Made by a program: the position numbers and the translations under genes
Notes under the pieces: generated by a model
What the model was told of the DNA's origin: nothing
Seen by the model: only the letters and a program-made list of their open reading frames with translations
The model's database searches: none
Part shown: piece after piece, positions 19,468 through 55,485 of the stretch
Layout of the letters: the number at the start of each line of letters is the position of its first letter
Position numbering within the stretch: the first letter of the stretch is position 1
Assembly: GCA_003354135.1 (NCBI GenBank)
Contig: PIVK01000004.1
Coordinates: 31,187-95,186, forward strand
DNA length: 64,000 bases
Origin: Rhodospirillales bacterium
Lineage (GTDB): Bacteria; Pseudomonadota; Alphaproteobacteria; Rhodospirillales; GLO-3
Direction: 5' to 3'

Positions 19468-19473
19468 GAGGCC

Positions 19474-38885: not shown

Positions 38886-38913
38886 CTCTGATATCTCCCT
38901 GTCCGCCGGTCGC

Positions 38914-40224
38914 TTACTTCTTGGCCTTGCGGGGCTTGACCCGCGCATCGTCCGCCGGAATGCCGAGCAGCTTGCCGACTTCCACGCGTCCGCCGTTCTC
39001 CATCCACTCGTCGGCCTTCTGGGCGTAGTGGACCACGTCCGTCATCGCCGAGTCGAAGCCGAAGATGCGATAGGGAAGACGGAGCGCATCCAGGGTGTCC
39101 TTGAAATAACCCATACCGCGGATCACCTGCGGTCCACCGCGACCGATAACGACATAAAGCGGGGCCGGGCCGTGTTCCGAAAAGTGTTCTCGAAGTGAAT
39201 CCGCAATGGCGCGGAAGGTAATGTAGATGTCCGTGTTGTTGGCCTTGCCGCCGATCAGGAACAGCACGTTGGACTGGGCCAGCCAGTACTTGAGGCAGAT
39301 CCGCGACACCTCGCGCATCTTGGCATACGGCGGGTTGCCGCCGAAGTCCGACGAGATGATGGCGTCGTCGCCCAGGCCTTCAGAGACCAAAGAGTTGGCG
39401 CCGCCGCCGAAGGTCGGGGCGAGGATGGTGCCCTTCTCGTTGATGACGTAGACGTCGCTCTGACCCTGGTAGGTCCGGAGTTGGTTGATCTCCTGTTCGA
39501 AGTCCGAGTGGTCGGCGGCGAACAGATCGTCCGGCAGGTTGGCACGTGCGACGCGTGGATCGTCTCGGTCAAAGCCGCACTTGAAGTCACAAGCGACCGG
39601 CGAAAGATAACCGGGCCGGCTCACCGTCATACGGATCGGGTTCAGCTCCAGCGTCGTCATGCCATAAAGGTGGAACAGGTCCCACAGCTTGGGCAGCTGC
39701 TGCACCAACGGCGAGACAATCTCCTTCGGGGCGCCCAAGTCGGACAGCGCGTTGGCGATGACGAAGGACTTGAGACCGGTCAGGGGATCGAAGGGGATCT
39801 CGACGATCTTACCCTTCGGCAGTTCCTCGATGTCCGTGCCGCCGTGATGGGTCAGCGTGATGGCCGGTGCCCGGTAGCGCGTCGAGTCCGAGATCGAGAA
39901 GTAGACCTCGTAGTCGGCCGGCACGCCGCCTTCGAAAGTGACACCGTTGGCTTTGGCTGTGGCGTTGCCATGCTTGTGCTCGACGAAATAGAGTCGCTCT
40001 TTTTCCGCCAGCGCGGTCCGCATGTCCTTGGCGCGGCCAAGCAAACCTGCCTTGCCTTTCTTGCCGACGCCGCCTTTGAAGATAGGCTTGACGAAAACCT
40101 CGCCGCAGCGCTCGATCAGTTCCTTAATCTCGGCGTCACTCGCCTCGGACCCCAACACTTCTGCAGAGGGGAACCCCACCTGCTTCAAAAGCTTGGAACC
40201 ATAGAGCATTCCGGTTACTTGCAT
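38914..40224 (-). CDS. aclB: ATP-citrate lyase beta-like subunit (ATP-grasp, succinyl-CoA-synthetase-beta-like)
   Basis: 436 aa with an ATP-grasp-like N-half (VFVKPIFKGGVGKKGKAGL). ATG 40224 is preceded by AAGGGGGAG. It lies immediately upstream of the alpha-like subunit. Confidence 0.7.
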   Translation of the reverse strand: MQVTGMLYGSKLLKQVGFPSAEVLGSEASDAEIKELIERCGEVFVKPIFKGGVGKKGKAGLLGRAKDMRTALAEKERLYFVEHKHGNATAKANGVTFEGGVPADYEVYFSISDSTRYRAPAITLTHHGGTDIEELPKGKIVEIPFDPLTGLKSFVIANALSDLGAPKEIVSPLVQQLPKLWDLFHLYGMTTLELNPIRMTVSRPGYLSPVACDFKCGFDRDDPRVARANLPDDLFAADHSDFEQEINQLRTYQGQSDVYVINEKGTILAPTFGGGANSLVSEGLGDDAIISSDFGGNPPYAKMREVSRICLKYWLAQSNVLFLIGGKANNTDIYITFRAIADSLREHFSEHGPAPLYVVIGRGGPQVIRGMGYFKDTLDALRLPYRIFGFDSAMTDVVHYAQKADEWMENGGRVEVGKLLGIPADDARVKPRKAKK

Positions 40225-40395: not shown

Positions 40396-41220
40396 TTAGT
40401 ACTCCTGCGGCAATTCCTTAAGATCCGCCCACGAATAAACGGGCCCCTTGGTGCAGACATAGTCCTTGCCCACATTGCAGCGGCCGCATTTGCCGATGCC
40501 ACACTTCATCTTATTTTCGATGGTGGTGTAGATCTGCGTGTCCTCGAAGCCCGCCCCTTTCAGGTTCTGGATCACGAACTTGATCATGATCGGCGGGCCG
40601 CAGGTGATGGCGATGGCGTTTTTGGGCGACGGGCTCTTGTCCATAACATTGGTGGGCACAAAGCCGCAGAACTCGTTCCAACCCTCCTCCTCGCTGTCGA
40701 TCGAAAGGTGCACCTCCGCATCACCGCGTAGCTTCTCCAGCTCCTTGGCATACATGATATCGCGGGATGAACGGCCACCGTAGAAGACGGTGATGTCCTT
40801 GAAATCCTTACGTTGCAACACCGCAGTCTGGATAATAGGCCAGATCGGGGCCAGGCCGCAGCCGCCGCCGATGAAGATCAGGTTCTTGCCCTTCCAGTCT
40901 TCGACCGGGAAGTTGTTGCCATAAGGACCACGGACGCCGATGACATCGCCTATTTCCATATCATGGATGGCCGTCGTCACGCGGCCCACCCGCATAATGC
41001 TGAATTGCTTGTATTCCTTGATCAGCGGCGAGGAGGCGATGGAAATCATCGACTCGCCTTTTCCGAATACCGACAGCATGGCGCACTGGCCGCACTCGTG
41101 GTCGAAACCGTCACCGTTGACGAATTCGACACGGAAGGTCTTGATCGCGCGGGCACCCTCGACCTCGGAGTTGACGTCGATGATACGCCCCATCTTCGGA
41201 AGATAAATATTATCCGACAT
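40396..41220 (-). CDS. FAD/NAD(P)-binding oxidoreductase with C-terminal [2Fe-2S] (sulfhydrogenase gamma / AsrB / FlxA-like)
   Basis: A ferredoxin-reductase-type fold (FIGGGCGLAPIWPI) and the C-terminal CGIGKCGRCNVG cluster motif. Confidence 0.75.
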   Translation of the reverse strand: MSDNIYLPKMGRIIDVNSEVEGARAIKTFRVEFVNGDGFDHECGQCAMLSVFGKGESMISIASSPLIKEYKQFSIMRVGRVTTAIHDMEIGDVIGVRGPYGNNFPVEDWKGKNLIFIGGGCGLAPIWPIIQTAVLQRKDFKDITVFYGGRSSRDIMYAKELEKLRGDAEVHLSIDSEEEGWNEFCGFVPTNVMDKSPSPKNAIAITCGPPIMIKFVIQNLKGAGFEDTQIYTTIENKMKCGIGKCGRCNVGKDYVCTKGPVYSWADLKELPQEY

Positions 41221-42253
41221 CGTGAGCCACCTTGTTCACGACCGCGACGATGTCGATGCCCACCGGGCATTCGCTGATACACCGGCCACAGCCGACACAC
41301 TGATACGTATCGTGGTTTTGGACAAAATAGAGGAACTTGTGACAGACCCGCTGTCTCAGCCGCGCCCCCAGCGTGTTGCGTGGGTTGTGACCCGACGAGT
41401 GCATGGTGAAGTCCGGGAACTGGCAGTTGTCCCAGGTGCGGACCCGCTGTCCTCGTAGCGGGGTTACGTTGGTCACTTCGTCGTTGATGTCGAAGCAGTG
41501 GCACGTCGGACACAGGAAGGTGCAGATGCCGCAGCCGATGCAGGCCTGCGCCATTTCACCCCAGACCTCGGAATCGAAGTTTTTTTGCAGATTCTCGGGG
41601 ACCGTCTTGATGTCGACAATCTCGCGCATTGGGGCCTTTTCGGCGTCGGCCTTGGCCTTGGCGGCCGTTTTCTTGTCGGCCGCCGAAGCGTTACCCAACG
41701 CCTTGCCGCCGGCCTTGACGATCTCCTCGCCGACCTTGGTCAGCGCTTTGACGAGATAGCTGTCACCGAGATCGACCATCAGGACGTCGAGACCGTCCTC
41801 GGAGTGCGGCGACCCGCCGACGGCGGTGCAGAAGCAGTTGCGCGACGGCGGCGTGTTGCAGGCGAGGCCCACCTGGGCCACCTTCTTGCGCCGCATCCAG
41901 TAATAGATGTCGTCGAATTCCTTGCTGAAGACCGTGTCGTTACGCGGACCTGCTCGTCCGTCACACGGCCGAACACCGAACACCACCTTGGGCGCCGCCA
42001 GGGCGGGCAGGGTCTCGGTCACCATCGGCGCCTCGCCCTTCTTCTGTGCAAACTCGCAGTAGACCTCGCGCTGCGGGAATGAAAAATCCTTGGGCGGCTT
42101 GACCGTATTGGTGTGGTCCAAAGCCGCGTCTTCGGGCTTTTCGACCTGCTTGAAATTCCACACCTCGTCCTCAAAAGCGGGCGCGTGGACTTCATACGAC
42201 GAGAGTGCGATCACCCAGTCGCGCAGGTTGTCTTTTTTCAGTACCTTTTCCAT
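41210..42253 (-). CDS. 4Fe-4S dicluster protein (sulfhydrogenase beta / AsrA / FlxB-like)
   Basis: Contains CIGCGICTFLCPTCHCFD and CVGCGRCISECPVG. It overlaps the downstream flavoprotein gene by 11 nt. Confidence 0.7.
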   Translation of the reverse strand: MEKVLKKDNLRDWVIALSSYEVHAPAFEDEVWNFKQVEKPEDAALDHTNTVKPPKDFSFPQREVYCEFAQKKGEAPMVTETLPALAAPKVVFGVRPCDGRAGPRNDTVFSKEFDDIYYWMRRKKVAQVGLACNTPPSRNCFCTAVGGSPHSEDGLDVLMVDLGDSYLVKALTKVGEEIVKAGGKALGNASAADKKTAAKAKADAEKAPMREIVDIKTVPENLQKNFDSEVWGEMAQACIGCGICTFLCPTCHCFDINDEVTNVTPLRGQRVRTWDNCQFPDFTMHSSGHNPRNTLGARLRQRVCHKFLYFVQNHDTYQCVGCGRCISECPVGIDIVAVVNKVAHDVG

Positions 42254-42257
42254 GGGG

Positions 42258-43319
42258 CTACCTGATGAAATCGTTGGGATCGTCGTCGCGGAACGAGGAC
42301 ACGAAAGAAGGCTGCCCGGGATCCATGCCGACGTCGTAGCCGAAGGTATCCTTGGCCTCGAAGTCGAGGACGCTGTTGAGCAGACGGACCGGAATGTTCA
42401 CCGGACACACCCGTTCGCATTCGCCGCAATCGACGCAGCGCCCGGCCAGGTGCATGGCGCGAACCAAGTGATAGCCGATGTTCTCCGACGTGGTGGCGGA
42501 GCGCTCGATCCACTTGATGCGGTTCGCCTTCTCTTCCGCAGAAGTGTCCTGGAGGACGTGCATGTTGATGCTGTCGACGACACACTCCTCGCAATAACAC
42601 ATGGGGCAGACCGAGCGGCAGGCGAAGCAACGAATGCAGCGATCAAAATGATGTCCCCAGAACTTCCACTTGTCGGCCGTCGAGCCTTCGTCGACCGTCT
42701 TGATGGCGGCGAAGGCATCGGCAAGGCCGCGATCCTCGACCGCCTCGCCGAATTCGTCGTCGAAAATGACGGGGTGAGGATGGCGGCACTCGAGGCACCG
42801 ATCGGCCATCACGTCCTTGGCGGCGACCTTCACGGTCTCGCCCGAGGTGGTGGTGACCTTGTAGCCGTTGCCGTCGAATTCCGTCTTCTCCGCCTGCAGG
42901 CCCTTGAGCTTCTTGGCCAACTTGTAGCGGTCCACCATGCCGGTTCCCTCGCAAGACACGCCCAACACGTGGATGTCGTCGCGAGGGAAGTAGTTCTCCT
43001 GAAGCAGCACGTTGACGGCACGCGTGTCACATCCCTTGGCAACGATAGCCAAGCGCTTGGACTTGTCTTCGCCCCCGGGAGCCGCTCCGTGGCCGTGCGC
43101 GGCCTTGGTTTGGCGCTTGCGCTCCTCCACCAGATAGAGGGCCAGGTTATGCACGCAGGTGGGGTCCCAGATCAAACCGTCCGCCTGATCCGCCTCGGTA
43201 ATAAATTTTGGGGACGCCAGATTGCCGGCCGTGCTCTCGATGAAGCCGACCACCGCCCCGACTTCGCCGTTCTCCAGCAGGGCTTTCGCCCGGTCCTTGA
43301 TGTCTTGAAGGTTGACCAT
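42258..43319 (-). CDS. Fe-S cluster protein associated with Hdr/Mvh-type complexes (FlxC-like)
   Basis: Contains CIRCFACRSVCPMCYCEEC and CVDCGECERVCPVNI. Its start shares one nucleotide with the MvhD stop (TGATG). Confidence 0.65.
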   Translation of the reverse strand: MVNLQDIKDRAKALLENGEVGAVVGFIESTAGNLASPKFITEADQADGLIWDPTCVHNLALYLVEERKRQTKAAHGHGAAPGGEDKSKRLAIVAKGCDTRAVNVLLQENYFPRDDIHVLGVSCEGTGMVDRYKLAKKLKGLQAEKTEFDGNGYKVTTTSGETVKVAAKDVMADRCLECRHPHPVIFDDEFGEAVEDRGLADAFAAIKTVDEGSTADKWKFWGHHFDRCIRCFACRSVCPMCYCEECVVDSINMHVLQDTSAEEKANRIKWIERSATTSENIGYHLVRAMHLAGRCVDCGECERVCPVNIPVRLLNSVLDFEAKDTFGYDVGMDPGQPSFVSSFRDDDPNDFIR

Positions 43320-43741
43320 CAGCGCTTCGCCTTCATCTTCTCTTGGGGGCCCAGATGCTTGAGATCCTCGACAAATCCCTCGATGACCTGGGCGTACTTG
43401 CCGCCTTCCGCCGCCGAAACCCAGGACATGCGGAACCGCTCCTCCTCCAGACCGATGAATTCAAGGAGCTTCTTGACCATGAAAATCTTACGCCGGGCGA
43501 AATAGTTGCCCTTCATGTAGTGGCAGTCGCCCGGGTGGCAGCCGGAGACCAGCACGCCGTCGGCACCCTTGTTGAAAGCCGACAGGATATAGGTCGGAGA
43601 CACCGAACCCGAACACATGACCTGGATCGGCACGGCATTCGACGGGTACTGCACACGGGATACGCCCGCAAGGTCGCTTCCGGCAGAGGAACACCACTTG
43701 CACAGGAAGGCAACGATCTTGGGCTCAAAGTCTTTGGACAT
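43319..43741 (-). CDS. MvhD/FlpD-type [2Fe-2S] electron-transfer subunit (FlxD-like)
   Basis: Contains KIVAFLCKWCSSAGSDLAG and VSGCHPGDCHY, the characteristic MvhD Cys pattern. I preferred ATG 43741 over TTG 43756. Confidence 0.8.
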   Translation of the reverse strand: MSKDFEPKIVAFLCKWCSSAGSDLAGVSRVQYPSNAVPIQVMCSGSVSPTYILSAFNKGADGVLVSGCHPGDCHYMKGNYFARRKIFMVKKLLEFIGLEEERFRMSWVSAAEGGKYAQVIEGFVEDLKHLGPQEKMKAKR

Positions 43742-43780
43742 GGGGGCGGACTCCAACCACTTTATCCGTTTCTCTTCACG

Positions 43781-45730
43781 CTACATTCCCAGGGCGGCCG
43801 AGATCATCTCGTTGACCTGGAGGGCCGTGATATTCCTCACATCGATGGCTTGACGCACGCAGGTCGCGGAACAGGTGCCGCACCCTTCGCACAGGACGTC
43901 GTTGACCCAAGCCTTGCCGTTCTTGAGGGAGATTGCCTCGTAGGGGCAAGCGTCGACGCACATCTCGCAACCGGTACAATGCGAATCCCGCACCTCGGCA
44001 ATCGCGGGGCTGTGCATCAGTTCGTCGGACGACAACAGTGAAATCACCTTGGCGGCAGCCGCGCTGGCCTGGGATACCGTTTCGGGAATGTCCTTCGGCC
44101 CCTGGGCGGCGCCGGCGAGGAACACGCCTGCGGTGACGCTTTCCACAGGCTTCAGCTTGGGGTGGGATTCGGCAAGGAACCCATCCTTGTCGAGGCCGAT
44201 CTTCAGAGTCTTGGCGACTTCGCGGGTGCCGTCCGAAGACTGCATGGCAAGCGCCAGAACCACCATATCGGCGTCGATCTGGATATTCTGGCCCGAAAGC
44301 GTATCAACGCCCTGCACGACTATCTTGCCGTCCTTCTCGTAGACCTTGGACACACGGCCGCGGAGATACATTGCCCCGTCGCCTTCCATGGCCCGCTGCA
44401 CGAACTCTTCGTAGCCCTTCCCGCCCGAGCGGATGTCGATATAGAAGATGTACGCTTGGCCGTCGGGCACATGGTGCTTGTAGAGCATGGCGTGCTTGGC
44501 CGTGTACATGCAGCAGATCTTGGAACACCAGGCGCAGTGTTGCTCGGGATTTCGCGAGCCGGCGCACTGGATGAAAACCACCGATTTCGGCGTTTTGCTG
44601 TCCGACGGGCGCAGCACGTGGCCCTCGGTCGGACCGGAGGCCGAGCACATGCGCTCGAACTGCAGGCCATCTAGGACGTCAAGGTATTTGCCGGCACCGT
44701 ATTCGCCCAGGTTCCCCTGGTCGTAAAGCTTGAAACCGGTGGCAACCACGATGGCGCCGATCTCCTCGTCGAAGATCTTGCCCTTCATGTCGTAGTTGAT
44801 GGCGCCGGCGTCGCAGACGTCCTTGCACTTGCCGCAGGCGATGGGGTTGAGACCCAGACAAGCCTCCTCGTCCAACGTGTAGGTGGCCGGAATGGCCTGG
44901 GCGAAGGGGATATGGATCGCGCGCCGGGCGCTGATGTTGATGTCGTACTCGTTGGGCACCACGACCGGGCAGACCTGGGTGCAGTCGTCGCACAACTTGC
45001 AGGTCTCGGGGTCGACATAGGGCGCTTTCTTCGTGATGGTCGCCTTGAAGTTGCCGACGAAGCCCGACAACTTGGTCACCTTGGCGTTGACGTGGAGCTC
45101 GATATTGGGATTGTTGGACAGTTCCACCATCTTCGGCGACAGGATGCACTGCGAACAGTCGAGTGTCGGGAAGGTCTCCGACAGCTTGATCATATTGCCG
45201 CCGACCGTGCGGTCCTTTTCCACCAGCACCACCTTAAACCCGGAGGCCGCCAGGTCGAGCGATGTCTGGATGCCGGCGATCCCGCCGCCGATGACCATCA
45301 CCTTACGGTTGACCGGAACGCCGATCGGGGTCAGAGAGTCGTTCTTCGATACCCGGCGGATGGCGCTCTTGGTGATCTTCATGGCCTTCGCCGTGGCCTC
45401 GTCCATATTTTTATGGACCCAGCTGCACTGCTCGCGGATGTTGGCGATCTCGCACTGGAACTGGTTCATGTCGGCACGTTCGGAGACGGTACGGAATGTC
45501 TTCTCGTGCAGGTTCGGCGAACAGCACGACACGATGACACTATCCAGCTTGTTGTCCCGGATCGCCTCGATCATAGTGTTCTGACCGGGGTCGGAACACA
45601 TGTAAACGTAGTCCTCGGAGAAGACGACGGCCTCCTCCTCGGCTAATTCTTCGGCCATCTTTTTCACGTCGACAGTGCCGGCAATATTCTTGCCGCAATG
45701 GCAGACGAAGACACCTACACGTTTCGTCAT
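43781..45730 (-). CDS. hdrA: HdrA-like heterodisulfide reductase subunit A family flavo-Fe-S protein
   Basis: Contains the N-terminal VFVCHCGKNI, the FAD site VIGGGIAGIQTSLDLA, and multiple ferredoxin motifs (CKLCDDCTQVCP, CTGCEMCVDACP, CEGCGTCSATC). GAGGTG lies 5 nt upstream of the ATG. Confidence 0.85.
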   Translation of the reverse strand: MTKRVGVFVCHCGKNIAGTVDVKKMAEELAEEEAVVFSEDYVYMCSDPGQNTMIEAIRDNKLDSVIVSCCSPNLHEKTFRTVSERADMNQFQCEIANIREQCSWVHKNMDEATAKAMKITKSAIRRVSKNDSLTPIGVPVNRKVMVIGGGIAGIQTSLDLAASGFKVVLVEKDRTVGGNMIKLSETFPTLDCSQCILSPKMVELSNNPNIELHVNAKVTKLSGFVGNFKATITKKAPYVDPETCKLCDDCTQVCPVVVPNEYDINISARRAIHIPFAQAIPATYTLDEEACLGLNPIACGKCKDVCDAGAINYDMKGKIFDEEIGAIVVATGFKLYDQGNLGEYGAGKYLDVLDGLQFERMCSASGPTEGHVLRPSDSKTPKSVVFIQCAGSRNPEQHCAWCSKICCMYTAKHAMLYKHHVPDGQAYIFYIDIRSGGKGYEEFVQRAMEGDGAMYLRGRVSKVYEKDGKIVVQGVDTLSGQNIQIDADMVVLALAMQSSDGTREVAKTLKIGLDKDGFLAESHPKLKPVESVTAGVFLAGAAQGPKDIPETVSQASAAAAKVISLLSSDELMHSPAIAEVRDSHCTGCEMCVDACPYEAISLKNGKAWVNDVLCEGCGTCSATCVRQAIDVRNITALQVNEMISAALGM

Positions 45731-45776
45731 CGAGTCACCTCACGCTTATCCTTGGTGCAATCCAACTCACAGGGCC

Positions 45777-46334
45777 TTAAGCGGCCTGCTTGCCGAATGC
45801 CTCCAAGCCGTAATCGTGGCCCTTCTCGAAGGCCTTGATGTTGATCTTCAGGAACCGATCTGGCACCAGACCGGGCAAAGCCTTTTTCATAGCCTCGGCC
45901 GACACGATGTCGGTCACGGCCGTGAAGAAGCCCAGCGTCACCAAGTTGGTGAACAACCGGTTGCCCAGTTCCTCGGCGAAACGGGTCGCGGGCACCGGGC
46001 ACATGTTGTGCTTCGGGTTGACCTCGATCGGTTTCACCAGGTCCTCGTCGATAATAAGGATGCCCCCGTCACCGAGTTCCAGCGAGTACTTGTCGTAGGC
46101 CTCCTGCGAAAGGGCAACCAAGATACCGGGAAGAATGGCGTAGGGATAAAGCACCTTCTCGTCGGAAACCACGAGCTGCGACGAACAGGCACTGCCACGC
46201 GCCTCGGGGCCGAAGCTCTGGGTCATGGTCGCATACATATTGTCGTACAGCGACAAGGCCTTGCCGGTGATCAGCGCACAGCGGACGATCCCCTGGCCGC
46301 CGAACCCGGAGAACTTGATCTCGGCGCCACTCAT
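45777..46334 (-). CDS. 2-oxoacid:ferredoxin oxidoreductase gamma subunit
   Basis: The N-terminus IKFSGFGGQGIV is typical of gamma subunits. ATGA overlap with the beta subunit's stop. Confidence 0.85.
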   Translation of the reverse strand: MSGAEIKFSGFGGQGIVRCALITGKALSLYDNMYATMTQSFGPEARGSACSSQLVVSDEKVLYPYAILPGILVALSQEAYDKYSLELGDGGILIIDEDLVKPIEVNPKHNMCPVPATRFAEELGNRLFTNLVTLGFFTAVTDIVSAEAMKKALPGLVPDRFLKINIKAFEKGHDYGLEAFGKQAA

Positions 46335-47347
46335 TTCTTCTTCGCCCGGCTGGCCGGGGCCTTCTTCTTCGCCGCTGTCTTCTTGGCCGGGGCTTTCTTT
46401 GTCGGGGCCTTGGCCGCGACCTTCTTCCCGAGGTCCTTTTTTGCCTTTGCAGCGTCCTTCTTGTTGGCTTCCTTCTCAGGCTCGGTCTCGCCGTAAAGCT
46501 GATAGTCGTCACCGATAACGTTGGTCAGACGGTCGTTCACCGCCTCAAGGAAGGTCGGCTTCTGCTTCTCGACGAACTTGCCCATGATGATCTTGCCCTG
46601 GAAGTCGATATCGGTTTCCCGCGTATCGATACCGTGCTTGATCTCGGCGTTGTCGTGGTAGTACTGCAGCGCCTTGACGCCGTCACCCAGCCTGTTGCGG
46701 CGCAGATAGAGCGTCGTGCAGGGCGTGATGACTTCGACAAAGGAGAAGCCCTTGTGGTTCAGCGCCTCCTGGATCGACGTTGTGATGCGACGCGCGTGCA
46801 GCGAGGTCCAGCGGGCCACGTAGGTCGCGCCGCAGGCGTCCGCCAGGAACGGTAAGCTGAACGGGTATTCATAGTTACCGTAGGGTGTCGTCGATGCGTT
46901 GGCCGTAATAGGCGTGGTCGGAGTCAACTGGCCGCCCGTCATGCCGTAGGTGAAGTTGTTCACGCAGATGACGGTGATGTCCATATTGCGGCGCGCGGCG
47001 TGGATGAAGTGGTTGCCGCCGATGCCGGTCAGGTCGCCATCGCCGGAGACCACCACGACCTTCATGCCGGGGTTGGCCAGCTTGAGTCCGGTTGCCAAGG
47101 GAATGGCGCGGCCGTGCGTCGCGTGGATCGAGTCCATCTTGACGTAGCCCGCGACACGGCCGGTGCAGCCGATGCCGGATACGACGGCCACGTTGTCAAG
47201 GTCCATCTCGTTGCGCTTCAGCGCCTCGGCGAACGAGGTGACGACCGTTCCAATGCCGCAGCCGGGGCACCAGATGTGGGGCATCCTTTCCATACGAAGG
47301 AAGCCGGCCATGGGGTTTTCAGTTGCGAAGCGGGATTCGTCGCTCAT
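46331..47347 (-). CDS. 2-oxoacid:ferredoxin oxidoreductase beta subunit (TPP-binding) with a Lys/Ala-rich C-terminal tail
   Basis: Contains WCPGCGIG and the TPP motif SGDGDLTGIGGNHF...NN. The last 46 residues contain 18 Lys and 14 Ala. Confidence 0.85.
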   Translation of the reverse strand: MSDESRFATENPMAGFLRMERMPHIWCPGCGIGTVVTSFAEALKRNEMDLDNVAVVSGIGCTGRVAGYVKMDSIHATHGRAIPLATGLKLANPGMKVVVVSGDGDLTGIGGNHFIHAARRNMDITVICVNNFTYGMTGGQLTPTTPITANASTTPYGNYEYPFSLPFLADACGATYVARWTSLHARRITTSIQEALNHKGFSFVEVITPCTTLYLRRNRLGDGVKALQYYHDNAEIKHGIDTRETDIDFQGKIIMGKFVEKQKPTFLEAVNDRLTNVIGDDYQLYGETEPEKEANKKDAAKAKKDLGKKVAAKAPTKKAPAKKTAAKKKAPASRAKKK

Positions 47348-48480
47348 TTTGCTGCCTCCTCAATGGCGGCCAGGATGACATTGGGATCATGGACGGCACC
47401 ACCGCAATGGGGAACGCTGATCACCTTGCACTGACCGCCCACGATGCGCTCCACTTCGAGGACCATCTGTCCGTAGTTGATTTCGGGCATGATGATCGCC
47501 TTGACGTTCTTGGCGATTTTGCGCACCTGGTTTTCGGCGAAGGGCCAGCAGGTGATAAGCCGCATGGCGCCCACCTTTAGACCCTTCCTGCGCGCATCCT
47601 GAACCGCTTTAACGGCGATACGCGACGTGATGCCGTAGGAGATGACGACCACCTCCGCGCCATCGATCTGATCCTCCTCGACACGAACGATCTTGTCGCG
47701 GTTACCGTCGATCTTCTCGATCATGTGGGTAACCACGATCTCGTTCTGCTTCGGATCCATCAACGGATAGCCGCGTTCGTCGTGGGTCAGGCCGGTGATG
47801 TGGAAACGGTACCCCTCGCCCGCCTTGACCATCGGGGCCGGAACTCGGTCCTTCTCGAAGCGGTAGGGCAGGTATTTGTCCTTGGGACCGGTGTACCAAT
47901 TGCGCTCGACGACCTCGATATCCTTGGCCTCGGGGATGTCCACGCGCTCGTGCATGTGGCCGACCGTCTCGTCGGTCATGATGAAGACCGGCACGCGGTA
48001 GGTCTCCGACAGGTTGAAGGCCTCGACGGCAAGGTCAAAACACTCCTGCGGGCTGTCGGGCGAAAGCGCGATCACGCGGTAGTCACCGTGCGACCCCCAG
48101 CGGGCCTGCATCATGTCCTGCTGCGCGGTCTGCGTCGGCAGGCCGGTCGAAGGACCGCAACGCTGCACGTTGGCAATAACCATCGGAGTCTCGGTCATGG
48201 CGGCCAAGCCGATGTTCTCCATCATCAGCGAGAAACCGGGACCCGAGGTCACGGTCATGACCTTGCGACCGCCCCAGGCGGCGCCGATAAGGGCCGCGAC
48301 CGAAGCGATCTCGTCCTCCATCTGGATAAACAGGCCACCCGCTTCGGGGCAGCGCTCGGCAAACCGTTCGGCGGTTTCGGTGGAGGGAGTAATGGGGTAT
48401 CCGGCAAAGAAACGACACCCCGCAGCGAGGGCTCCTTCGGCAAGGGCATGGTCTCCGTCGAGGAAATGGGACCCCGACAT
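47344..48480 (-). CDS. 2-oxoacid:ferredoxin oxidoreductase alpha subunit
   Basis: Contains FFAGYPITPSTE and GPSTGLPT. I preferred ATG 48480 (GAAGGG upstream). The alternative, ATG 48534, would add a basic 18-aa extension and overlap the delta gene. Confidence 0.85.
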   Translation of the reverse strand: MSGSHFLDGDHALAEGALAAGCRFFAGYPITPSTETAERFAERCPEAGGLFIQMEDEIASVAALIGAAWGGRKVMTVTSGPGFSLMMENIGLAAMTETPMVIANVQRCGPSTGLPTQTAQQDMMQARWGSHGDYRVIALSPDSPQECFDLAVEAFNLSETYRVPVFIMTDETVGHMHERVDIPEAKDIEVVERNWYTGPKDKYLPYRFEKDRVPAPMVKAGEGYRFHITGLTHDERGYPLMDPKQNEIVVTHMIEKIDGNRDKIVRVEEDQIDGAEVVVISYGITSRIAVKAVQDARRKGLKVGAMRLITCWPFAENQVRKIAKNVKAIIMPEINYGQMVLEVERIVGGQCKVISVPHCGGAVHDPNVILAAIEEAAK

Positions 48481-48505
48481 TACGCCCTTCGGATCTGCGG
48501 CGACT

Positions 48506-48760
48506 TTACGCACTTTGCTTCTCCTCTTCGTCATACGTCACGTAAATCGCGAATTCAGGGCAAACGATTTCGCAGAAATGACAGTTGCGACACTGATCGG
48601 CAGTCTTCACATAAGGGGGGTGATACCCCTTCTTGTTGTAATCTGGAGATATCTCCAGGACGTTGGTCGGGCAATATTCGACGCAGAAGCCGCAGCCCTT
48701 ACACCAATCATTTTTGATGTGAACCTCGCCAAGTGCCGGTTTGATTTTCCCGAAGAACAT
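48506..48760 (-). CDS. 2-oxoacid:ferredoxin oxidoreductase delta subunit (2 x [4Fe-4S] ferredoxin)
   Basis: Contains CKGCGFCVEYCP and CRNCHFCEIVCP. ATG 48760 is preceded by GAGGAG. Confidence 0.8.
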   Translation of the reverse strand: MFFGKIKPALGEVHIKNDWCKGCGFCVEYCPTNVLEISPDYNKKGYHPPYVKTADQCRNCHFCEIVCPEFAIYVTYDEEEKQSA

Positions 48761-48770
48761 AGCTTTCTCC

Positions 48771-49652
48771 TCAGAGCAGACCTTTGTCTGCCAAGACGGG
48801 TTTCGGGTCGATGTGGTGGAGATCCAAGCGCAGGTCCTCCTCGTCCGAGCAGCCAAGCGCCAAGGCCATCAACTGCGTGAAATAGACAACGGGCATGTTC
48901 TTGAAATCCGGGAAAAGTTCCCGGGTCTGCTCCTGACGGTTATCCAAATTGAAGGCGCACAGCGGGCAACTGACGGCAACGATGTCGGCTCCCTGGGAGC
49001 TGGCGTTACCAACGATCTTGTTAGTCTGTTCGGCCACGATCCCGGGCTTGTCGACCGTTTGATAGGACGCGCAGCACTCGGTCTTCATCGCGAAATCGAC
49101 CGGGGTTCCGCCCAGGGCCGTCACCAGGTCTTCCATGATGGTCGGATTTTCGGTGTCGTCGATGGCCGCTTCCTGCGGACGTACCAGCATGCAGCCGTAG
49201 TAGCAGGCGACTTTGAGTCCTTCGAGGGGCTTCTCGACCCTTGCTGCGATGTCCTTGAACCCGAACTCGTCACGCAGGAACTCAAGCAAGTGAAAAACGT
49301 TGACGTCGCCCTCGTAATCCACGTCCTCAAGGTACATGAAGTCGTTGAGCCGATCCTTCGCCTCGTTGTCCCGCTTCACATGCTCGTTGGCCCTTTTGAG
49401 GGTGTTGTAGCACATGGAGCAGACCGTCATGAGTTGGTCGGTGCCCGCTTCCTTGGCCCGGATCAAATTGCGGACCGGAGCCATGCGATTCATCAGGTTG
49501 TCGGAGGTGAGCGAGTGGACGGTGCCGCAGCAGTTCCACCGCGTAAGCTCCTCGACCTCGACGCCCAAGCGCTCCATGGCCGAAAACGTCGAGTCATCGA
49601 AGTTTTTGGCATGGTTCTTAAGCGTACAACCGGGATAGTAGCTAAGCTTCAT
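48771..49652 (-). CDS. HdrB-like protein with two CCG (Cys-rich) domains (also the SdhE / TfrB C-terminal type)
   Basis: Contains YYPGCTLKN...NCCGTV and YYGCMLVRP...ECCASY. I placed the start at ATG 49652, inside the longer ORF. Confidence 0.75.
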   Translation of the reverse strand: MKLSYYPGCTLKNHAKNFDDSTFSAMERLGVEVEELTRWNCCGTVHSLTSDNLMNRMAPVRNLIRAKEAGTDQLMTVCSMCYNTLKRANEHVKRDNEAKDRLNDFMYLEDVDYEGDVNVFHLLEFLRDEFGFKDIAARVEKPLEGLKVACYYGCMLVRPQEAAIDDTENPTIMEDLVTALGGTPVDFAMKTECCASYQTVDKPGIVAEQTNKIVGNASSQGADIVAVSCPLCAFNLDNRQEQTRELFPDFKNMPVVYFTQLMALALGCSDEEDLRLDLHHIDPKPVLADKGLL

Positions 49653-49678
49653 CACTACTTCTTCTTCTACCGTGTAAT

Positions 49679-49937
49679 ACCAAGGTGCGGTGATAATGAC
49701 CCATAGAGACGGCTTCCCCTGATTTTTGGCTAGGAGCGCGCATCGAAGCGATGTGAGGCATCGGGAGATGCGTGCGACGCGATCCAAAAGTCAGGGGAAA
49801 CCGCCGTTCCGGTCGCTTATACAGCCCGTCGGAGGGCGTCGGGAAGCCTTGACGATGCGCCGCATCGCCTGCGTCTTTCCTCCTACCCGACGGGCTGTAT
49901 AAGTGATCTCTATGGGTCATTATCACCGCACCTTGGT
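49679..49937. repeat. 259-bp nested-palindrome element with perfect 31-bp terminal inverted repeats (MITE-like element or structured intercistronic RNA)
   Basis: 49679-49709 is the exact reverse complement of 49907-49937. The inner stems are 49710-49729 with 49784-49803 (20 bp, 1 mismatch and 1 G-T) and 49816-49832 with 49887-49903 (17 bp, perfect). Confidence 0.9.
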
Positions 49938-50270
49938 TAACCTACATCCTTCAGCGGGAGGAGACGGCAGGGTTAAAATGAGACAGCGGCGCCCGATCAA
50001 TGCTCTTCGGCAGTGTGCAACGAATAAATTACTCCGTTACATCGCCGAGATAATTACGGACAGTTGTTCTTGAATTAGTATTCAAAAACGAACTTGATGC
50101 CCTAGCCCCAGTCTCCCATACCTTCTTTTTCTACAACCACTTTCCTCCCTTGAAAAGCAGCCGACTTAGTCTCTTTTACATTGGCTTCCCTTTTACGGGA
50201 GGCCGGTTGTATTATTGAGGACGTCCGACGAGACGAACAACCCCGGGTATAACTGTCTCACGGTCGCGCA

Positions 50271-50675
50271 TCAGGAGGTAAACTTCCTCATGGCGCTGAT
50301 CAACGCGATCGGCGGCAGGTTCTCGCCCGGGTTGGGCAGTTCCTGAACCACCAAGTGATCCTTTCTCTGGCGCAAGTTGATCTGACGCAAGGCCTCGATG
50401 GTGCCGGCGATGTTGACGCCCTTAGGGCACCGACTGTCGCAAGTGAGGCACGAGACGCAAAGCCAGATGGCCTTGGAATTCAGCAGCTGATCCTGCATGC
50501 CGAGCTGAGAAAGGCGGATAATCTGGTTGGGCAAGATGTCCATATGGGGCCCCATCGGACACCCGGCGGAACAGTTGCCGCACTGGTAACAGGCCAGAAG
50601 ATTCTGGTCGGCCAGTTTCTCGACCTTCGAGACAAACTCCGTCGAGGCCTTCGTGGGGGAGATGCTTACATGCAC
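50271..50675 (-). CDS. HdrC-like 4Fe-4S dicluster protein
   Basis: Contains CYQCGNCSAGCP and CVSCLTCDSRCP. GTG 50675 has GAGGGAAGGA 8 nt upstream. The longer ORF to 50912 would overlap the upstream gene. Confidence 0.7.
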   Translation of the reverse strand: MHVSISPTKASTEFVSKVEKLADQNLLACYQCGNCSAGCPMGPHMDILPNQIIRLSQLGMQDQLLNSKAIWLCVSCLTCDSRCPKGVNIAGTIEALRQINLRQRKDHLVVQELPNPGENLPPIALISAMRKFTS

Positions 50676-50691: not shown

Positions 50692-51228
50692 TCAGGCGTT
50701 TTCCATGTTCGGCGTGAAGTCGCCCATGTCGACCCACACACCCATGTTCTCGACACTATCCATCTGGCTCTGGAGAAGGTCGTAGTGAAATCTCTCCTCG
50801 TCAGCCAGCTTCTCGGCGTACTCGCGGACCTTGGGGTCCTTGGTGCGCTGGATAAGGTTTTCAAAATTGGCAATGGCGCGGCGTTCCATATCCATGGCGA
50901 TGCGGAGCGCATCGGAATCGCCGGCCAGTTCTCCCTTCTTGCGCTTGCGTACGGCTTCGTCGAGTTCGTCGACCAACCCGGAACGTCCGCCCTTGGCCTT
51001 CACCTCTTCCACGATAACCTTCCAGCCCTCGTTGCCGACGATGGGGGCGAAGATGCAGCCCAACTCGTCGGTATGCCCAGCCTCTTCCTTGGAGAGACGT
51101 TCGAACATGGCCTTGCCGTCGCGGTTTTCCGTCACGGCAGCGGCGCGCTTATAGAACTTCTCACCGTTGATCTCCAGGTCGACGGCCTCGCGGATAAGAG
51201 CGAGAATTTGTTCATCGATCTGCGTCAT
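50692..51228 (-). CDS. Ferritin-like diiron protein (rubrerythrin family without a rubredoxin domain; erythrin-like)
   Basis: Two E...ExxH pairs are present: EINGEKFY with EEAGH, and MERRAIANF with EERFH. Confidence 0.65.
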   Translation of the reverse strand: MTQIDEQILALIREAVDLEINGEKFYKRAAAVTENRDGKAMFERLSKEEAGHTDELGCIFAPIVGNEGWKVIVEEVKAKGGRSGLVDELDEAVRKRKKGELAGDSDALRIAMDMERRAIANFENLIQRTKDPKVREYAEKLADEERFHYDLLQSQMDSVENMGVWVDMGDFTPNMENA

Positions 51229-51260: not shown

Positions 51261-52976
51261 TCAGCCAGACATCTTCTTCGGTGCAACCCCACCACCCAAC
51301 ATGCCGGTGCTGGCCGGCATCTGGTTGCAGCGCGCATGGCGGCGTGCCTTGACGTCTTCCGGCGCGTATGACGGCAAGAGAACCGGGGTCACCAGATCGG
51401 TCTTGATCTTGGCCTTTTTGATCTCGGCGTCGTACTTGGCGACGTGCTCGAGGCTGAGCGACTTGCCCAGCTTCGCCTTCTTGACGTACTCGCTGGTATA
51501 GATTCCGGCGCGGCGACCGAACACGTTGTAATCCAACACCGAATTACCCATAAGGCGGTTGCGTCCGTGCAGACCGCCGGTCGCCTCACCAGCCACGAAC
51601 AGGCCCGGAATGTCGGTCTCGCAACGCTCGTTGATCTCGATGCCGCCGTTCTGGTAGTGCAGCGACGGGTAGATCAGCATCGGCAACTCGGTGATGTCCA
51701 TTCCGTAGTTGATGTACTGGCGGTACATGGCCGGGAACTGGTGGGCCACATAACCCTCGCCGTGGATGGAATCGATCAGCGGGCTGTCCAGCCACACGCC
51801 GAGCCGCCCTGAAGGCGTTTCGATGCCGCCACCGTTTTGCAGACATTCGCGGATGATGGCCGAGGCCTCGATGTCGCGCGGCTCGCGCGGGAACACGAAC
51901 AGCTCTCCGTCCTTGTCCAGCGGCTGGCCGCCGGCACCACGGATCTTCTCGGTGATAAGGAAGCCTGCGATCTGCTCCGGGAAAACGGCGCCCGTCGGGT
52001 GGTACTGGACCGAGTCCATGTACATGAGCTTGGCTCCGGCCCGGTAGGCCATGACCAAGCCGTCACCCGTCGCACCATAGTGGTTGGTGGTGTCGAAACC
52101 GCGAATATGCAGCCGCCCGAAGCCGCCGGTGGCAACCAGGGTGGCCTTCGCCTTGACGGTGACGAACTCTTCCGTGTCGAGGTCGTAAAGCACGGCACCA
52201 GCACACTGGCCCTTGTTGTCGAGGATCAGCTCGACCGCCGGCATGAATTCGCGCACGGTGATCTTATCGGGGTTGTTGTGGACCTCGTCCATCAGGGAAC
52301 GCATGATGATGGCGCCCGTGTAGTCGCGGGACGACAGCATACGCTTGCGCGACGTGCCGCCGCCATGCAGCACCTGCAGCGAGCCATCCTCTTCCTTGTC
52401 CCAGATGACGCCCAGATCCTCAAGAGCCTTGACCACCTCGGGCCCATCCTCGGTGAGGGCCCGGACCAGTTCCGGCTTGTTCTCGAAGTGGCCACCGCCG
52501 ATGGCATCCAAGTAGTGGTGGGTTGGCGAGTCAGTGGAAGAGACCGCCGCCTGCATGCCGCCCTGCGACATCATGGAATTGGCGTCGCCCATGCGCAGCT
52601 TGGTGGCAATCAGCGACTTGACGCCGTTCTGCATGGCGACGATGGCCGCCTGGCAGCCGGCGCCGCCGCCGCCGATGATCAAGAGATCGGTCTCGTAGTC
52701 CGGCTTCTTGAGGTCGAACTTCTTGGCGTCGACCCAGGAATGGGACTCGAGCATATCCGCAACCTCGGTAGTCAGAGTCTCGCCCTTGTTGGGACCGACC
52801 CGGACCTTGCAGCGCGCATCCTTCTTAAAATCGGGATGAAAACCCTTAAGAACGTCCGCGCGCTCTTCGGCGGTCATCGGCGGATAGACGGGATCGGGCT
52901 TCTTGGCCAGTTCTAAACGCCTGGGCCTAGTCTGCTCAACCTTCTTCAGCGAAGTCGACATATAATCTGGATACAT
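51261..52976 (-). CDS. Fumarate reductase / succinate dehydrogenase flavoprotein-family subunit (soluble type, predicted non-covalent FAD)
   Basis: Contains the FAD site LLIIGGGGAGCQAA. NSMMSQGG stands where the histidyl-FAD enzymes have HTVAAQGG. There is an N-terminal extension of about 95 aa. ATG 52976 is preceded by GGGAGG. Confidence 0.75.
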   Translation of the reverse strand: MYPDYMSTSLKKVEQTRPRRLELAKKPDPVYPPMTAEERADVLKGFHPDFKKDARCKVRVGPNKGETLTTEVADMLESHSWVDAKKFDLKKPDYETDLLIIGGGGAGCQAAIVAMQNGVKSLIATKLRMGDANSMMSQGGMQAAVSSTDSPTHHYLDAIGGGHFENKPELVRALTEDGPEVVKALEDLGVIWDKEEDGSLQVLHGGGTSRKRMLSSRDYTGAIIMRSLMDEVHNNPDKITVREFMPAVELILDNKGQCAGAVLYDLDTEEFVTVKAKATLVATGGFGRLHIRGFDTTNHYGATGDGLVMAYRAGAKLMYMDSVQYHPTGAVFPEQIAGFLITEKIRGAGGQPLDKDGELFVFPREPRDIEASAIIRECLQNGGGIETPSGRLGVWLDSPLIDSIHGEGYVAHQFPAMYRQYINYGMDITELPMLIYPSLHYQNGGIEINERCETDIPGLFVAGEATGGLHGRNRLMGNSVLDYNVFGRRAGIYTSEYVKKAKLGKSLSLEHVAKYDAEIKKAKIKTDLVTPVLLPSYAPEDVKARRHARCNQMPASTGMLGGGVAPKKMSG

Positions 52977-53071: not shown

Positions 53072-53812
53072 CTACTCCATGTCCCTGGCATAGTAGCGAT
53101 CCGAGAGCTCCTTCTTGCTCATCGACATGAGTTCCTTGTACTCGGCGTCGAAGGCGCCCTTCTTGACGTCACGGAGCCTTTTGGCAAGCTCCTTGCTCTC
53201 CTTGCGGAGGTAGCGGCCGTAAAGCCTCTTGGCCAGCATGCCGACGGCGGGCTGAGTGATTTCGGCGGGGCAGCGTATGGTACACATCTGGCAGCCGACG
53301 CAATCGAACGACAGGTCCATGACCTTCGCGACGTCGCCGCGCATGGCCGCGTTCACGTAATCCATCACCTGTAGGCCCTGGACACATGCCTTGGTGCAGG
53401 TGTTGCAGGACACGCAGCGGAACACCTCCGGGTAGTATTTCCGGAAGGCCTCGACACCGGGCTTAACTTTCTTGATGTCGTAGATTTCTTTCCGGGCCGG
53501 TATCGACGGGAACTGCGCCAGGCTCATGCCGGGCTTAACCAGTGTCATGCAGGCTAGGCCCATGTGCATTTTATAGTCGCCGGGCATGCGGTAGACCGTC
53601 GCGCAGGCGCCGCAGTAGCCTTCCCGGCAACCCGCGCCGCGAACGATCGTATGGCCCGCATATTCAATAGCACCCATGATGGTCGCGTCCGACGGGACCT
53701 GAGCCGCTTTGCCCATGATATAGACGGTCACCATCTCGGCAACGGCGTCGGCCTTTCCCTTCTGCCGACGGCTCAGCGCGGATTTGGCTTTAGCTGCTTT
53801 GCCCTTGATCAT
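53072..53812 (-). CDS. Fumarate reductase / succinate dehydrogenase iron-sulfur-subunit-like protein with a basic N-terminal extension
   Basis: Contains [2Fe-2S]-type CREGYCGACATVY, then CVSCNTCTKAC and CVGCQMCTIRCP. ATG 53812 has GGGAGG 6 nt upstream. The first 20 residues carry 6 Lys and 2 Arg. Confidence 0.7.
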   Translation of the reverse strand: MIKGKAAKAKSALSRRQKGKADAVAEMVTVYIMGKAAQVPSDATIMGAIEYAGHTIVRGAGCREGYCGACATVYRMPGDYKMHMGLACMTLVKPGMSLAQFPSIPARKEIYDIKKVKPGVEAFRKYYPEVFRCVSCNTCTKACVQGLQVMDYVNAAMRGDVAKVMDLSFDCVGCQMCTIRCPAEITQPAVGMLAKRLYGRYLRKESKELAKRLRDVKKGAFDAEYKELMSMSKKELSDRYYARDME

Positions 53813-54336
53813 CCGTTACCTCCCTACCACAACGGCTCTTCTCTCGGGACGACATAGCGCCCTGCAAGCTGGCCTATGCGGCCACGCCTTCGCAAAATAT
53901 TCATTCCTAAATGTCTAGCCGTCTTTCCGGACTTTTAGATCGTTGTTATCGCGGTCGTCCGGTTAGCGACTCCCGTGAAGCCTGTGGTCTGTATATAGCA
54001 AATCTCTGATAGACGCAAAATTGATTTATGAAGTTGTTTGTTTCCAGTGCATTATATGGCGTTTTGGCGGCATTTTCGGAGTTTCCGCCGCTCCGGGACG
54101 TGCATAACCGGGACATGTTCGGACGAGACCCGTTCAGTGTCACCTGTCTCCAGACCAAGCAAAAAAGATGATGATACACCCGTCACGCGCCGAGACGATC
54201 TTTCACCCCGATTTTAGGCAAACCCGTTTCCCATGCGTTAACCATTGTTCTCCCTTGATTTCTTCGTAGTTTTCCCACATTTTCCTTGACTCTCCTGGAA
54301 GGGTGCCGCGCTGGGCCGGACTGGCCGGAAGGGCTT

Positions 54337-55464: not shown

Positions 55465-55485
55465 AGATTCCGGGGAGCCCAACAC

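Follow-up and report, generated by a model that had tools for sequence, protein, structure and literature searches.

The stretch of DNA analyzed here, referred to below as the window, comprises 64,000 nucleotides from a Rhodospirillales bacterium (GCA_003354135.1, contig PIVK01000004.1, forward-strand positions 31,187 to 95,186). From 53812 to 36180, its minus strand carries a tightly packed gene cassette that reads, in the order of transcription, frdB-frdA-rbr-hdrC-hdrB-korDABC-hdrA-flxDCBA-aclB-aclA (Table 1). A sequence-only reading of this cluster had proposed that a fumarate reductase is wired to Flx- and Hdr-type proteins so that fumarate drives the bifurcation of NAD(P)H electrons to ferredoxin. 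Pfam and NCBIfam agreed with every gene assignment behind this proposal: the genes for HdrA, the MvhD-like protein and the FlxC-, FlxB- and FlxA-like proteins, clustered at 40396-45730, were all found intact on the minus strand, and the gene map confirmed that the HdrB-like gene, with its two CCG domains, and the HdrC-like gene are split from hdrA by the four kor genes. The further claim that HdrBC lie beside FrdAB stood insofar as both pairs belong to the same cluster, but a rubrerythrin-like gene that had gone unmentioned (rbr, 50692-51228) separates hdrC from frdA. In addition, the range given for the proposal, 40396-50675, stopped at the hdrC start, so that rbr, frdA and frdB, which the argument needs, fell outside it. 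The two genes of ATP-citrate lyase (ACL), aclB and aclA, lie directly downstream of flxA, and the true start of aclA is probably near 38885. A promoter and terminator scan of the cluster gave counts at chance level and was thus uninformative on operon structure.

Table 1. Features of the minus-strand cassette, listed by position in the window (OGOR, 2-oxoglutarate:ferredoxin oxidoreductase)
Feature	Position	Strand	Supporting match or motif
aclA, ATP-citrate lyase large subunit	36180-38948	-	succinyl-CoA ligase alpha-like N-terminus, 111 bits (NCBIfam)
aclB, ATP-citrate lyase small subunit	38914-40224	-	Pfam Citrate_bind and ATP-grasp_2
flxA-like, FAD/NAD(P)H-binding, C-terminal [2Fe-2S]	40396-41220	-	NAD_binding_1 and DHODB_Fe-S_bind, Cx4CxxC
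flxB-like Fe-S protein, sulfhydrogenase-beta-like	41210-42253	-	Fer4_22
flxC-like Fe-S protein, FrhB/FdhB-like region	42258-43319	-	two CxxCxxCxxxC motifs
flxD, MvhD-type [2Fe-2S] adaptor to HdrA	43319-43756	-	Pfam FlpD, E = 2.5e-51
hdrA, full-length flavoprotein, six Fe-S cluster motifs	43781-45730	-	aligned to 8rvu_a and 5odc_A
korC, OGOR gamma	45777-46334	-	2-oxoacid:ferredoxin oxidoreductase gamma, 188 bits
korB, OGOR beta, Lys/Ala-rich C-terminal tail of ~47 amino acids	46331-47347	-	2-oxoglutarate ferredoxin oxidoreductase beta, 243 bits
korA, OGOR alpha	47344-48534	-	559 bits versus curated cut-off of 411
korD, OGOR delta, two [4Fe-4S] motifs	48506-48760	-	OGOR_delta, 68.8 bits; two CxxCxxCxxxC
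hdrB-like, two CCG domains	48771-49652	-	Pfam CCG matched twice
non-coding insert, 615 nt	49653-50270	-	palindromic element inside, 49679-49937
hdrC-like, two [4Fe-4S] motifs	50271-50675	-	Fer4_8/Fer4_17
rbr, rubrerythrin-like diiron four-helix protein without rubredoxin domain	50692-51228	-	Pfam Rubrerythrin, E = 4.8e-11
frdA/tfrA-like flavoprotein	51261-52976	-	FAD_binding_2, 245 bits; TfrA model, 339 bits
frdB/tfrB-N-like Fe-S subunit, one [2Fe-2S] and two [4Fe-4S] motifs	53072-53812	-	Fer2 and Fer4 only

The conservation of this arrangement was then examined in relatives. A FrdA scan of 185,579 species-representative genomes returned 129 relatives, and the best 80 loci were compared by tblastn with all 16 window proteins. 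FrdA at these loci was 63-80% identical to the window FrdA, and this maximum of 80% indicates that the window's own genome lies outside that genome collection. The block frdBA-(rbr)-hdrCB-korDABC-hdrA-flxD(CBA) was conserved in 73 of the 80 loci, spanning several phyla, an arrangement far beyond chance. Two orders account for the conserved loci. Type I (47 loci) reads frdB-frdA-rbr-hdrC-hdrB-korDABC-hdrA-flxDCBA and occurred under record titles naming Gallionella, Sideroxydans, Sulfuricella, Hydrogenophilales, Rhodocyclaceae, Gammaproteobacteria and one Rhodospirillaceae metagenome-assembled genome (MAG), while type II (26 loci, titled Aminicenantes/Acidobacteriota, Zetaproteobacteria, Rokuibacteriota and others) is its circular permutation, hdrC-hdrB-korDABC-hdrA-flxDCBA-frdB-frdA, without rbr. 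MAG labels among the relatives were Gallionellaceae, Sideroxydans, Sulfuricellaceae, Hydrogenophilales, Rhodospirillaceae, Zetaproteobacteria, Aminicenantes and Rokuibacteriota. The korDABC genes lay between hdrB and hdrA in 72 of the 73 conserved loci, the exception being a short contig (L052) that ends after hdrC. Two loci within type II (L060, 2831-7634, and L066, 6829-11656) carried no flxABC and ran hdrA-flxD-frdB-frdA, a third arrangement, so that the electron donor there would be other than the Flx NAD(P)H module. The remaining seven loci comprised five short or truncated contigs and two distinct variants. In one, a Gallionella MAG (L031, 9310-16240), frdB-frdA is followed by a 62-residue remnant of the FlxA C terminus and by aclB-aclA, which points either to a clean deletion that removed rbr through flxA, 12 genes in all, or to an assembly artefact; in the other, from a divergent Aerophobetes (L080), hdrB-hdrA-frdB-frdA are adjacent and no kor genes lie between them.

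The flanks of individual cassettes were also read. A gammaproteobacterial MAG, RIFOXYA12, which is a sibling of the RIFOXY MAG of the published cluster, has the same cassette order as the window, with aclB-aclA after flxA. In the Alphaproteobacteria MAG GCA_030740435.1 (L081), by contrast with this ACL-linked copy, DDE transposases at 5263-6020 and 19368-20657 bracket the genes from frdB to flxA and no ACL gene is adjacent; the transposases on both sides suggest that the cassette moves as a unit. On an Aminicenantes chromosome, the flanks consisted of unrelated housekeeping genes, and no ACL gene was found in the ~10-kb flanks. As the two relatives read past both ends have no ACL beside the cassette, Frd, Hdr and Kor appear to form a single functional unit. 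The invariant core is HdrABC with MvhD, KorABCD and FrdAB, to which FlxABC, rbr and ACL are accessory. This conservation of the block is the strongest computational evidence found here, and it supports the view that Frd, Hdr and Kor would work together.

Within the Hdr module, residues 4-647 of HdrA aligned end to end with the methanogen proteins 8rvu_a and 5odc_A (615-632 bits). The aligned cysteine features were the N-terminal Cys motif, DCSxC, the inserted ferredoxin motifs, QC..SR / CS..CCMY and both C-terminal CxxCxxCxxxC motifs, and the N-terminal Cys domain, the FAD domain and the inserted and C-terminal ferredoxin domains were all complete, with all cluster cysteines. The window HdrA is predicted from this alignment to be a full-length protein of the methanogen type. 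The short HdrA of the sulfur-oxidizer Hdr-like system (6tjr, 349 residues) was tried as a counterpart and rejected, as it matched HdrA residues 326-565 only. HdrB carries the C..CC..CxxC pattern twice, with CC at residues 42 and 194 and CxxC at residues 79 and 230. Its matches to methanogen HdrB in the PDB scored 146-163 bits (7bkb_B, 163 bits), and its NCBIfam scores were 192 bits for HdrB, 175 bits for SdhE, which NCBIfam describes as the CCG-type subunit named as the anchor of 8-methylmenaquinol:fumarate reductase, and 43 bits for TfrB. A homology search with HdrB returned close cassette relatives only, at least 62% identical, the nearest named one being an Alphaproteobacteria MAG. HdrC scored 80.6 bits on HdrC and 76.5 bits on QmoC, and each cassette holds a single hdrBC pair. 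As for the Flx-like proteins, FlxA resembles HydG/AsrB (180-216 bits, NCBIfam) and FlxB resembles HydB/ShyB/AsrA, with 175-178 bits on the ShyB/HydB models and the sulfhydrogenase beta subunit 9nez_B as its best PDB match (168 bits), while the C-terminal part of FlxC matched FdhB of the solved Fdh-Hdr complexes 8rvu_E and 7bkb_E (67 bits).

Residues of FrdA were compared in an alignment that included 120 family members and E. coli K-12 FrdA from RefSeq, and positions are given in E. coli numbering. The dicarboxylate-site residues H232, T244, E245, R287, H355 and R390 were invariant in the 120 family members, whereas His44, to which FAD is covalently attached in E. coli, was Asn in 120 of 120. 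E. coli FrdA that lacks the covalent FAD link retains fumarate reduction but has lost succinate oxidation. FrdA is therefore classed, as a prediction from these residues, as an enzyme of the fumarate-reductase type with non-covalent FAD. Its best NCBIfam match was the thiol:fumarate reductase TfrA, at 339 bits against a curated equivalog cut-off of 718. An N-terminal extension of ~95 amino acids is conserved across the 120 relatives, the commonest residue having a frequency of 0.81-0.86; the TfrA model aligns from FrdA residue 98 only, and E. coli FrdA lacks the extension but is longer at the C terminus. The extension could be a docking element for HdrBC. An AlphaFold2 model of FrdA built from a 30-sequence alignment had a mean pLDDT (predicted local distance difference test score) of 47.6, too poor to interpret the extension.

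FrdB (246 amino acids) combines a Cx4CxxC motif with two complete CxxCxxCxxxC motifs, the counterpart in E. coli FrdB being CTFVGYCSEVCP, and contains neither a CCG domain nor a [3Fe-4S]-type motif. Lacking CCG, FrdAB alone has no recognizable thiol-oxidizing module. The NCBIfam TfrB model covers three cassette proteins consecutively, with FrdB at positions 23-183, HdrC at 183-221 and HdrB at 256-485, so that the methanogen TfrB appears to unite in a fused protein the parts that the cassette keeps apart. The absence of a membrane-anchor subunit, asserted from the sequence alone, was borne out by a Kyte-Doolittle scan of all cassette proteins: no 19-residue window exceeded 1.6 in any of them, and the cluster had no spare open reading frame and no room for an unannotated anchor, while LptF and LptG of the same window, used as positive controls, gave 43-48 hydrophobic windows. 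Membrane-bound quinol:fumarate reductase or succinate:quinone reductase was considered as an identity for FrdAB and rejected, since the anchor, the covalent-FAD His and the [3Fe-4S] motif are all missing.

It is conceivable that the substrate of the FrdAB-like pair is not fumarate but another dicarboxylate, an enoate or L-aspartate, which would make its link to the reductive tricarboxylic acid (rTCA) cycle indirect. FrdA scored below every curated NCBIfam cut-off, with the NadB models nearly equal to the Frd/Sdh models, and the FrdB family is small and separate (506 representatives at E <= 1e-3 among 1.84 billion proteins), both of which leave some room for such a substrate. The six fumarate-site residues are, however, all invariant; an Fe-S partner and the natural FrdB-FrdA fusion found among the FrdB family matches (P0337) suit Frd/Sdh-type enzymes and not NadB; and aclBA are directly adjacent in the window, in the RIFOXYA12 MAG and in the Gallionella MAG with the apparent deletion. 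A substrate other than fumarate is consequently judged very improbable.

All four Kor subunits are present. KorA cleared its curated cut-off, and the beta and delta subunits scored best on 2-oxoglutarate models yet below the respective cut-offs. The C-terminal tail of KorB (window 46331-46475) is rich in Lys, Ala and Pro and histone-H1- or AlgP-like, and such tails occur in many type I cassettes. They extend over 90-200 amino acids in most Gallionellaceae and Sideroxydans MAGs, compared with ~47 in the window; the loci with such a tail include L003, L005, L006, L022, L029, L037 and L079, KorB ends short and acidic in L001, L004, L010, L018, L044 and L045, and the tail is absent from type II cassettes (Aminicenantes- and Zetaproteobacteria-type). 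AclA had no Pfam match at E <= 1e-5, and NCBIfam returned only 111 bits, on succinyl-CoA ligase alpha, but it was 69% identical to the AclA encoded beside AclB in L031. AclA is a predicted divergent ACL large subunit, poorly covered by current profile libraries; ACL of this kind was called "type II" by Rubin-Blum 2019 (PMC6315080). The rbr gene sits between frdA and hdrC in every complete type I cassette and is missing from type II. Its product may give oxygen or peroxide protection in microaerophilic hosts or may be an extra subunit.

Taking gene content and synteny together, we favor, at a probability of roughly 55%, the reading that this is an rTCA-linked cassette in which fumarate would drive an HdrA-type bifurcation of NAD(P)H electrons to ferredoxin. 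We infer the following steps from homology and synteny. FlxA would oxidize NAD(P)H, and FlxB, FlxC and the MvhD-type FlxD would relay the electrons to the flavin of HdrA, where the pair would be bifurcated. The low-potential electron would leave through the ferredoxin domains of HdrA to ferredoxin, or directly to KorD, where electrons would enter OGOR, and drive the carboxylation of succinyl-CoA by the 2-oxoglutarate synthase. The high-potential electron would pass through the HdrC clusters, the CCG clusters of HdrB, FrdB and the non-covalent FAD of FrdA to fumarate. The net reaction would be 2 NAD(P)H + fumarate + 2 Fd(ox) -> 2 NAD(P)+ + succinate + 2 Fd(red), where Fd is ferredoxin; by this stoichiometry, the reduction of one fumarate would supply the two low-potential electrons for carboxylating the succinyl-CoA made from it, that is, for one OGOR turnover. 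The reduction of fumarate by NADH yields -58 kJ/mol (Table 1 of PMC13147460), and by our own arithmetic the transfer of electrons from NADH to ferredoxin at -440 to -480 mV costs about +23 to +31 kJ/mol, so the energetics allow bifurcation. The proposal of the sequence-only reading thus stands at the level of genes, with the unit of Frd, HdrABC, MvhD and Kor backed by synteny; the bifurcation itself and fumarate as its acceptor stay predictions, and the idea had already been published, as described below. Its companion claim, entry of NAD(P)H through Flx, agrees with the FlxA-like domains in the window but is not universal, given that L060 and L066 keep MvhD without flxABC.

The electrons could reach fumarate by way of a thiol instead. 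Flx-HdrABC would then bifurcate to ferredoxin and to a disulfide carrier, DsrC-like or a small heterodisulfide, and the resulting thiol would feed a Tfr-like enzyme, a variant also offered by Rubin-Blum 2019 (PMC6315080) and Mitchell 2024 (PMC11636981). The two complete CCG motifs of HdrB, like those of disulfide-reducing HdrB, and the status of TfrA as the best NCBIfam match of FrdA would fit such a route. Against it, FrdAB offers no CCG module for thiol oxidation, there is a single hdrBC pair, the cassette holds no gene for a small cysteine-rich carrier, and the hosts are diverse (Gallionellaceae, Aminicenantes, Zetaproteobacteria), with no shared dedicated thiol carrier evident at these loci. 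The first three of these points would favor direct wiring. The SdhE score of HdrB, which is near its HdrB score, and the adjacency of hdrB-hdrA-frdB-frdA in L080 were counted in support of the main reading. We regard a thiol shuttle as unlikely.

The cassette could also encode a plain soluble NAD(P)H:fumarate reductase, in which Flx, HdrA and HdrBC are a wire to FrdAB, kor shares no more than the regulation and another system, Rnf for example, reduces ferredoxin. The retention in HdrA of the full bifurcating architecture, including both ferredoxin-type domains, speaks against this, as does the position of korDABC between hdrB and hdrA in nearly all conserved loci, even where no ACL is adjacent; moreover, forgoing the roughly -58 kJ/mol would be costly. 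A comparable enzyme is known from Hydrogenobacter thermophilus, whose fumarate reductase genes are reportedly scattered in the genome and for which we know of no report of bifurcation. The five-subunit fumarate reductase of that rTCA bacterium (Miura 2008, as cited in PMC13147460) is, like the predicted product of the cassette, soluble, NADH-linked and multi-subunit, and it sets a precedent for the plain reaction, while the published symbiont clusters carry pntAB and rnf, possible sources of low-potential electrons. On balance, a simple reductase appears improbable.

Reverse operation would mean that Aminicenantes and similar anaerobic heterotrophs oxidize succinate with NAD+ as acceptor, helped by Fd(red) from the oxidation of 2-oxoglutarate. 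The Aminicenantes, whose cassette has no ACL gene in the ~10-kb flanks, are usually regarded as heterotrophic. The mean of the potentials of ferredoxin (about -450 mV) and succinate/fumarate (+30 mV), calculated by us from textbook values, is nevertheless ~-210 mV, too positive for NAD+ at -320 mV under standard conditions, and a confurcating succinate oxidase was rejected on these energetic grounds. The His-to-Asn replacement, invariant in the FrdA family, points the same way, since replacing the covalent-FAD His abolishes succinate oxidation by E. coli FrdA (textbook). Confurcation is accordingly the reading to which we give the least credence.

Several observations weigh against fumarate-driven bifurcation as read here. 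We found no enzymology for any cassette member in the searchable literature, and the parent FlxABCD-HdrABC system is said to be known from genetics only. The 2-oxoacid specificity of Kor is suggested only by model scores, the donor is not always Flx (L060 and L066), and both complete CCG motifs in HdrB mean that a disulfide may yet be its substrate. A search of 1.84 billion representatives with this FrdB family turned up no fusion to CCG among the matches inspected; the three longest in the top 150 were the FrdB-FrdA fusion P0337 and two others, and those two, together with two matches of typical length, contained Fe-S domains only. Finally, tfrAB in Endoriftia has a differential-expression pattern unlike that of the rest of the cluster (PMC11636981).

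A bolder version of fumarate-driven bifurcation, which we consider doubtful, would unite the proteins in one soluble Flx-MvhD-HdrABC-FrdAB-KorABCD supercomplex, horizontally mobile and with an exchangeable donor unit, that sends electrons straight into KorD without free ferredoxin. Its overall reaction would be fumarate + succinyl-CoA + CO2 + 2 NAD(P)H -> succinate + 2-oxoglutarate + CoA. If it exists, the supercomplex would be a self-financing "fumarate to 2-oxoglutarate" module, with Flx or another MvhD partner as donor, that could install the ferredoxin-dependent half of the rTCA cycle in Alpha-, Beta-, Gamma- and Zetaproteobacteria and in Aminicenantes-labelled MAGs.

The cluster type has been described before. 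Rubin-Blum, Dubilier and Kleiner (mSphere 2019, PMC6315080; bioRxiv 2018) reported it from the Escarpia and Riftia symbionts, Thioflavicoccus mobilis and a RIFOXY gammaproteobacterial MAG, giving the order frdA, hdrC, hdrB, korD, korA, korB, korC, hdrA, flxD, flxC, flxB, flxA, aclB, aclA in Table S1 of PMC6315080, and had already put forward the fumarate-driven mechanism for tubeworm symbionts with this gene order. In Endoriftia, the cluster was found to be co-expressed, tfrAB excepted, by Mitchell et al. (Nat Microbiol 2024, PMC11636981), and a 2026 survey (PMC13147460) repeats the mechanism. As an idea, the mechanism is not new, and the window is another case of a published cluster type. It shares with the tubeworm-symbiont cluster the content, order and single strand of tfrB-tfrA-rbr-hdrC-hdrB-korDABC-hdrA-flxDCBA-aclB-aclA, but its host is, judging from the neighbors of PepA and HdrB, Rhodospirillales-like, not a gammaproteobacterial sulfur oxidizer (Chromatiaceae or tubeworm symbiont); the nearest named relatives of the window PepA are Rhodospirillales, Rhodospirillaceae and Magnetovibrio MAGs, at 66-71% identity. 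Two further differences are the 615-nt insert between hdrC and hdrB and the lack, in the 64-kb window, of any match to the idh, acn, mdh, pntAB and rnf genes of the symbiont cluster; in a scan of the larger open reading frames in the rest of the window against Pfam and NCBIfam, most belonged to housekeeping families and three matched nothing. The analysis adds to the published cases an alphaproteobacterial host, a wider distribution, a division into three arrangements, a variant without Flx, copies that are flanked by transposases and independent of ACL, and the invariant His-to-Asn replacement in FrdA.

Other known systems share parts of the cassette. With the FlxABCD-HdrABC NADH dehydrogenase/heterodisulfide reductase (Ramos et al. 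2015, as cited in PMC5861303 and PMC6315080) of Desulfovibrio vulgaris, it appears, by domains and profiles, to have the same seven protein types and domain layouts in common. In contrast to the contiguous hdrCBA-flxDCBA of Desulfovibrio, korDABC here splits hdrA from hdrBC and frdBA is attached, no alcohol dehydrogenase gene is adjacent, and the proposed acceptor is fumarate via FrdAB, not DsrC. The likeness to the methanogen Mvh/Fdh-HdrABC complexes (5odc, 7bkb, 8rvu) lies in the end-to-end match of HdrA, the match of HdrB, the presence of MvhD and the resemblance of FlxC to FdhB, but the donor module here is Flx, for NAD(P)H, and not a hydrogenase or formate dehydrogenase. To our knowledge, the heterodisulfide CoM-S-S-CoB would not be expected in bacteria. 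Methanothermobacter TfrAB is likewise soluble and anchor-free, TfrA is the best model for FrdA, and the TfrB model covers FrdB, HdrC and HdrB; TfrB, however, joins the SdhB-like Fe-S part and CCG in one polypeptide, whereas separate genes encode them here, and the window FrdA has its conserved N-terminal extension and scores below the TfrA cut-off. In AprAB-QmoABC of sulfate reducers, HdrA- and HdrC-like proteins feed an FrdA-family flavoenzyme with a small Fe-S partner. The QmoC score of the window HdrC recalls this system, but QmoC is membrane-bound and quinol-linked, and the substrate is adenosine 5'-phosphosulfate. Bcd-EtfAB is a functional analogue, in which the reduction of an enoate-type C=C bond pays for the transfer of electrons from NADH to ferredoxin, the potentials being similar, near -10 mV for crotonyl-CoA and near +30 mV for fumarate; the proteins are unrelated, and the flavin is of the Etf type, not of the HdrA type.

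The hdrC-hdrB spacer stands out against that of the relatives, where it mostly measures 18-53 nt compared with the 615 nt of the window. Inside it lies a palindromic element of 259 nt, which is bounded by perfect inverted repeats of 31 nt, encloses two 20-nt hairpins and as RNA folds into a three-way junction (-162.7 kcal/mol, z = -15.8). No second copy was found in the window, none was found in metagenome contigs and there was no Rfam match; Rfam and tRNA scans across the whole window found nothing. The element may be an insertion resembling a miniature inverted-repeat transposable element, or an mRNA-processing or stability element inside the operon.

In the wider window, pepA (19474-21015) and lptF-lptG (54286-56586), which are usually divergent neighbors in Proteobacteria, are separated by 33 kb, the rTCA cassette being on the lptF side. 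The G+C content drops to 0.50 at 34-36 kb, where an HSDR_N_2 gene (restriction-enzyme N-terminal-like) and a DUF5655 gene are located. This region may represent an inserted island. A separate AmmeMemoRadiSam set, comprising a radical SAM enzyme, a Memo-like protein and AMMECR1, is encoded at 22076-23197, 26672-27478 and 27465-28118, with the radical SAM gene on the opposite strand and ~3.5 kb from the other two.

How ferredoxin is reduced for the 2-oxoglutarate and pyruvate synthases of rTCA bacteria is still described as unresolved (PMC10052474), a question that applies especially to microaerophiles. The window contributes breadth and not a new concept: the cassette is real, and the mechanism predicted for it is plausible and important. 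As the cassette is far more widespread than the published cases, with 129 relatives from one scan, any biochemical result would generalize widely, and a cultivable host exists in Thioflavicoccus mobilis. If the prediction is true, a fumarate-dependent, HdrA-type NAD(P)H:ferredoxin bifurcase would explain the ferredoxin supply of a large group of organisms, and fumarate would be a new class of acceptor for flavin-based bifurcation.

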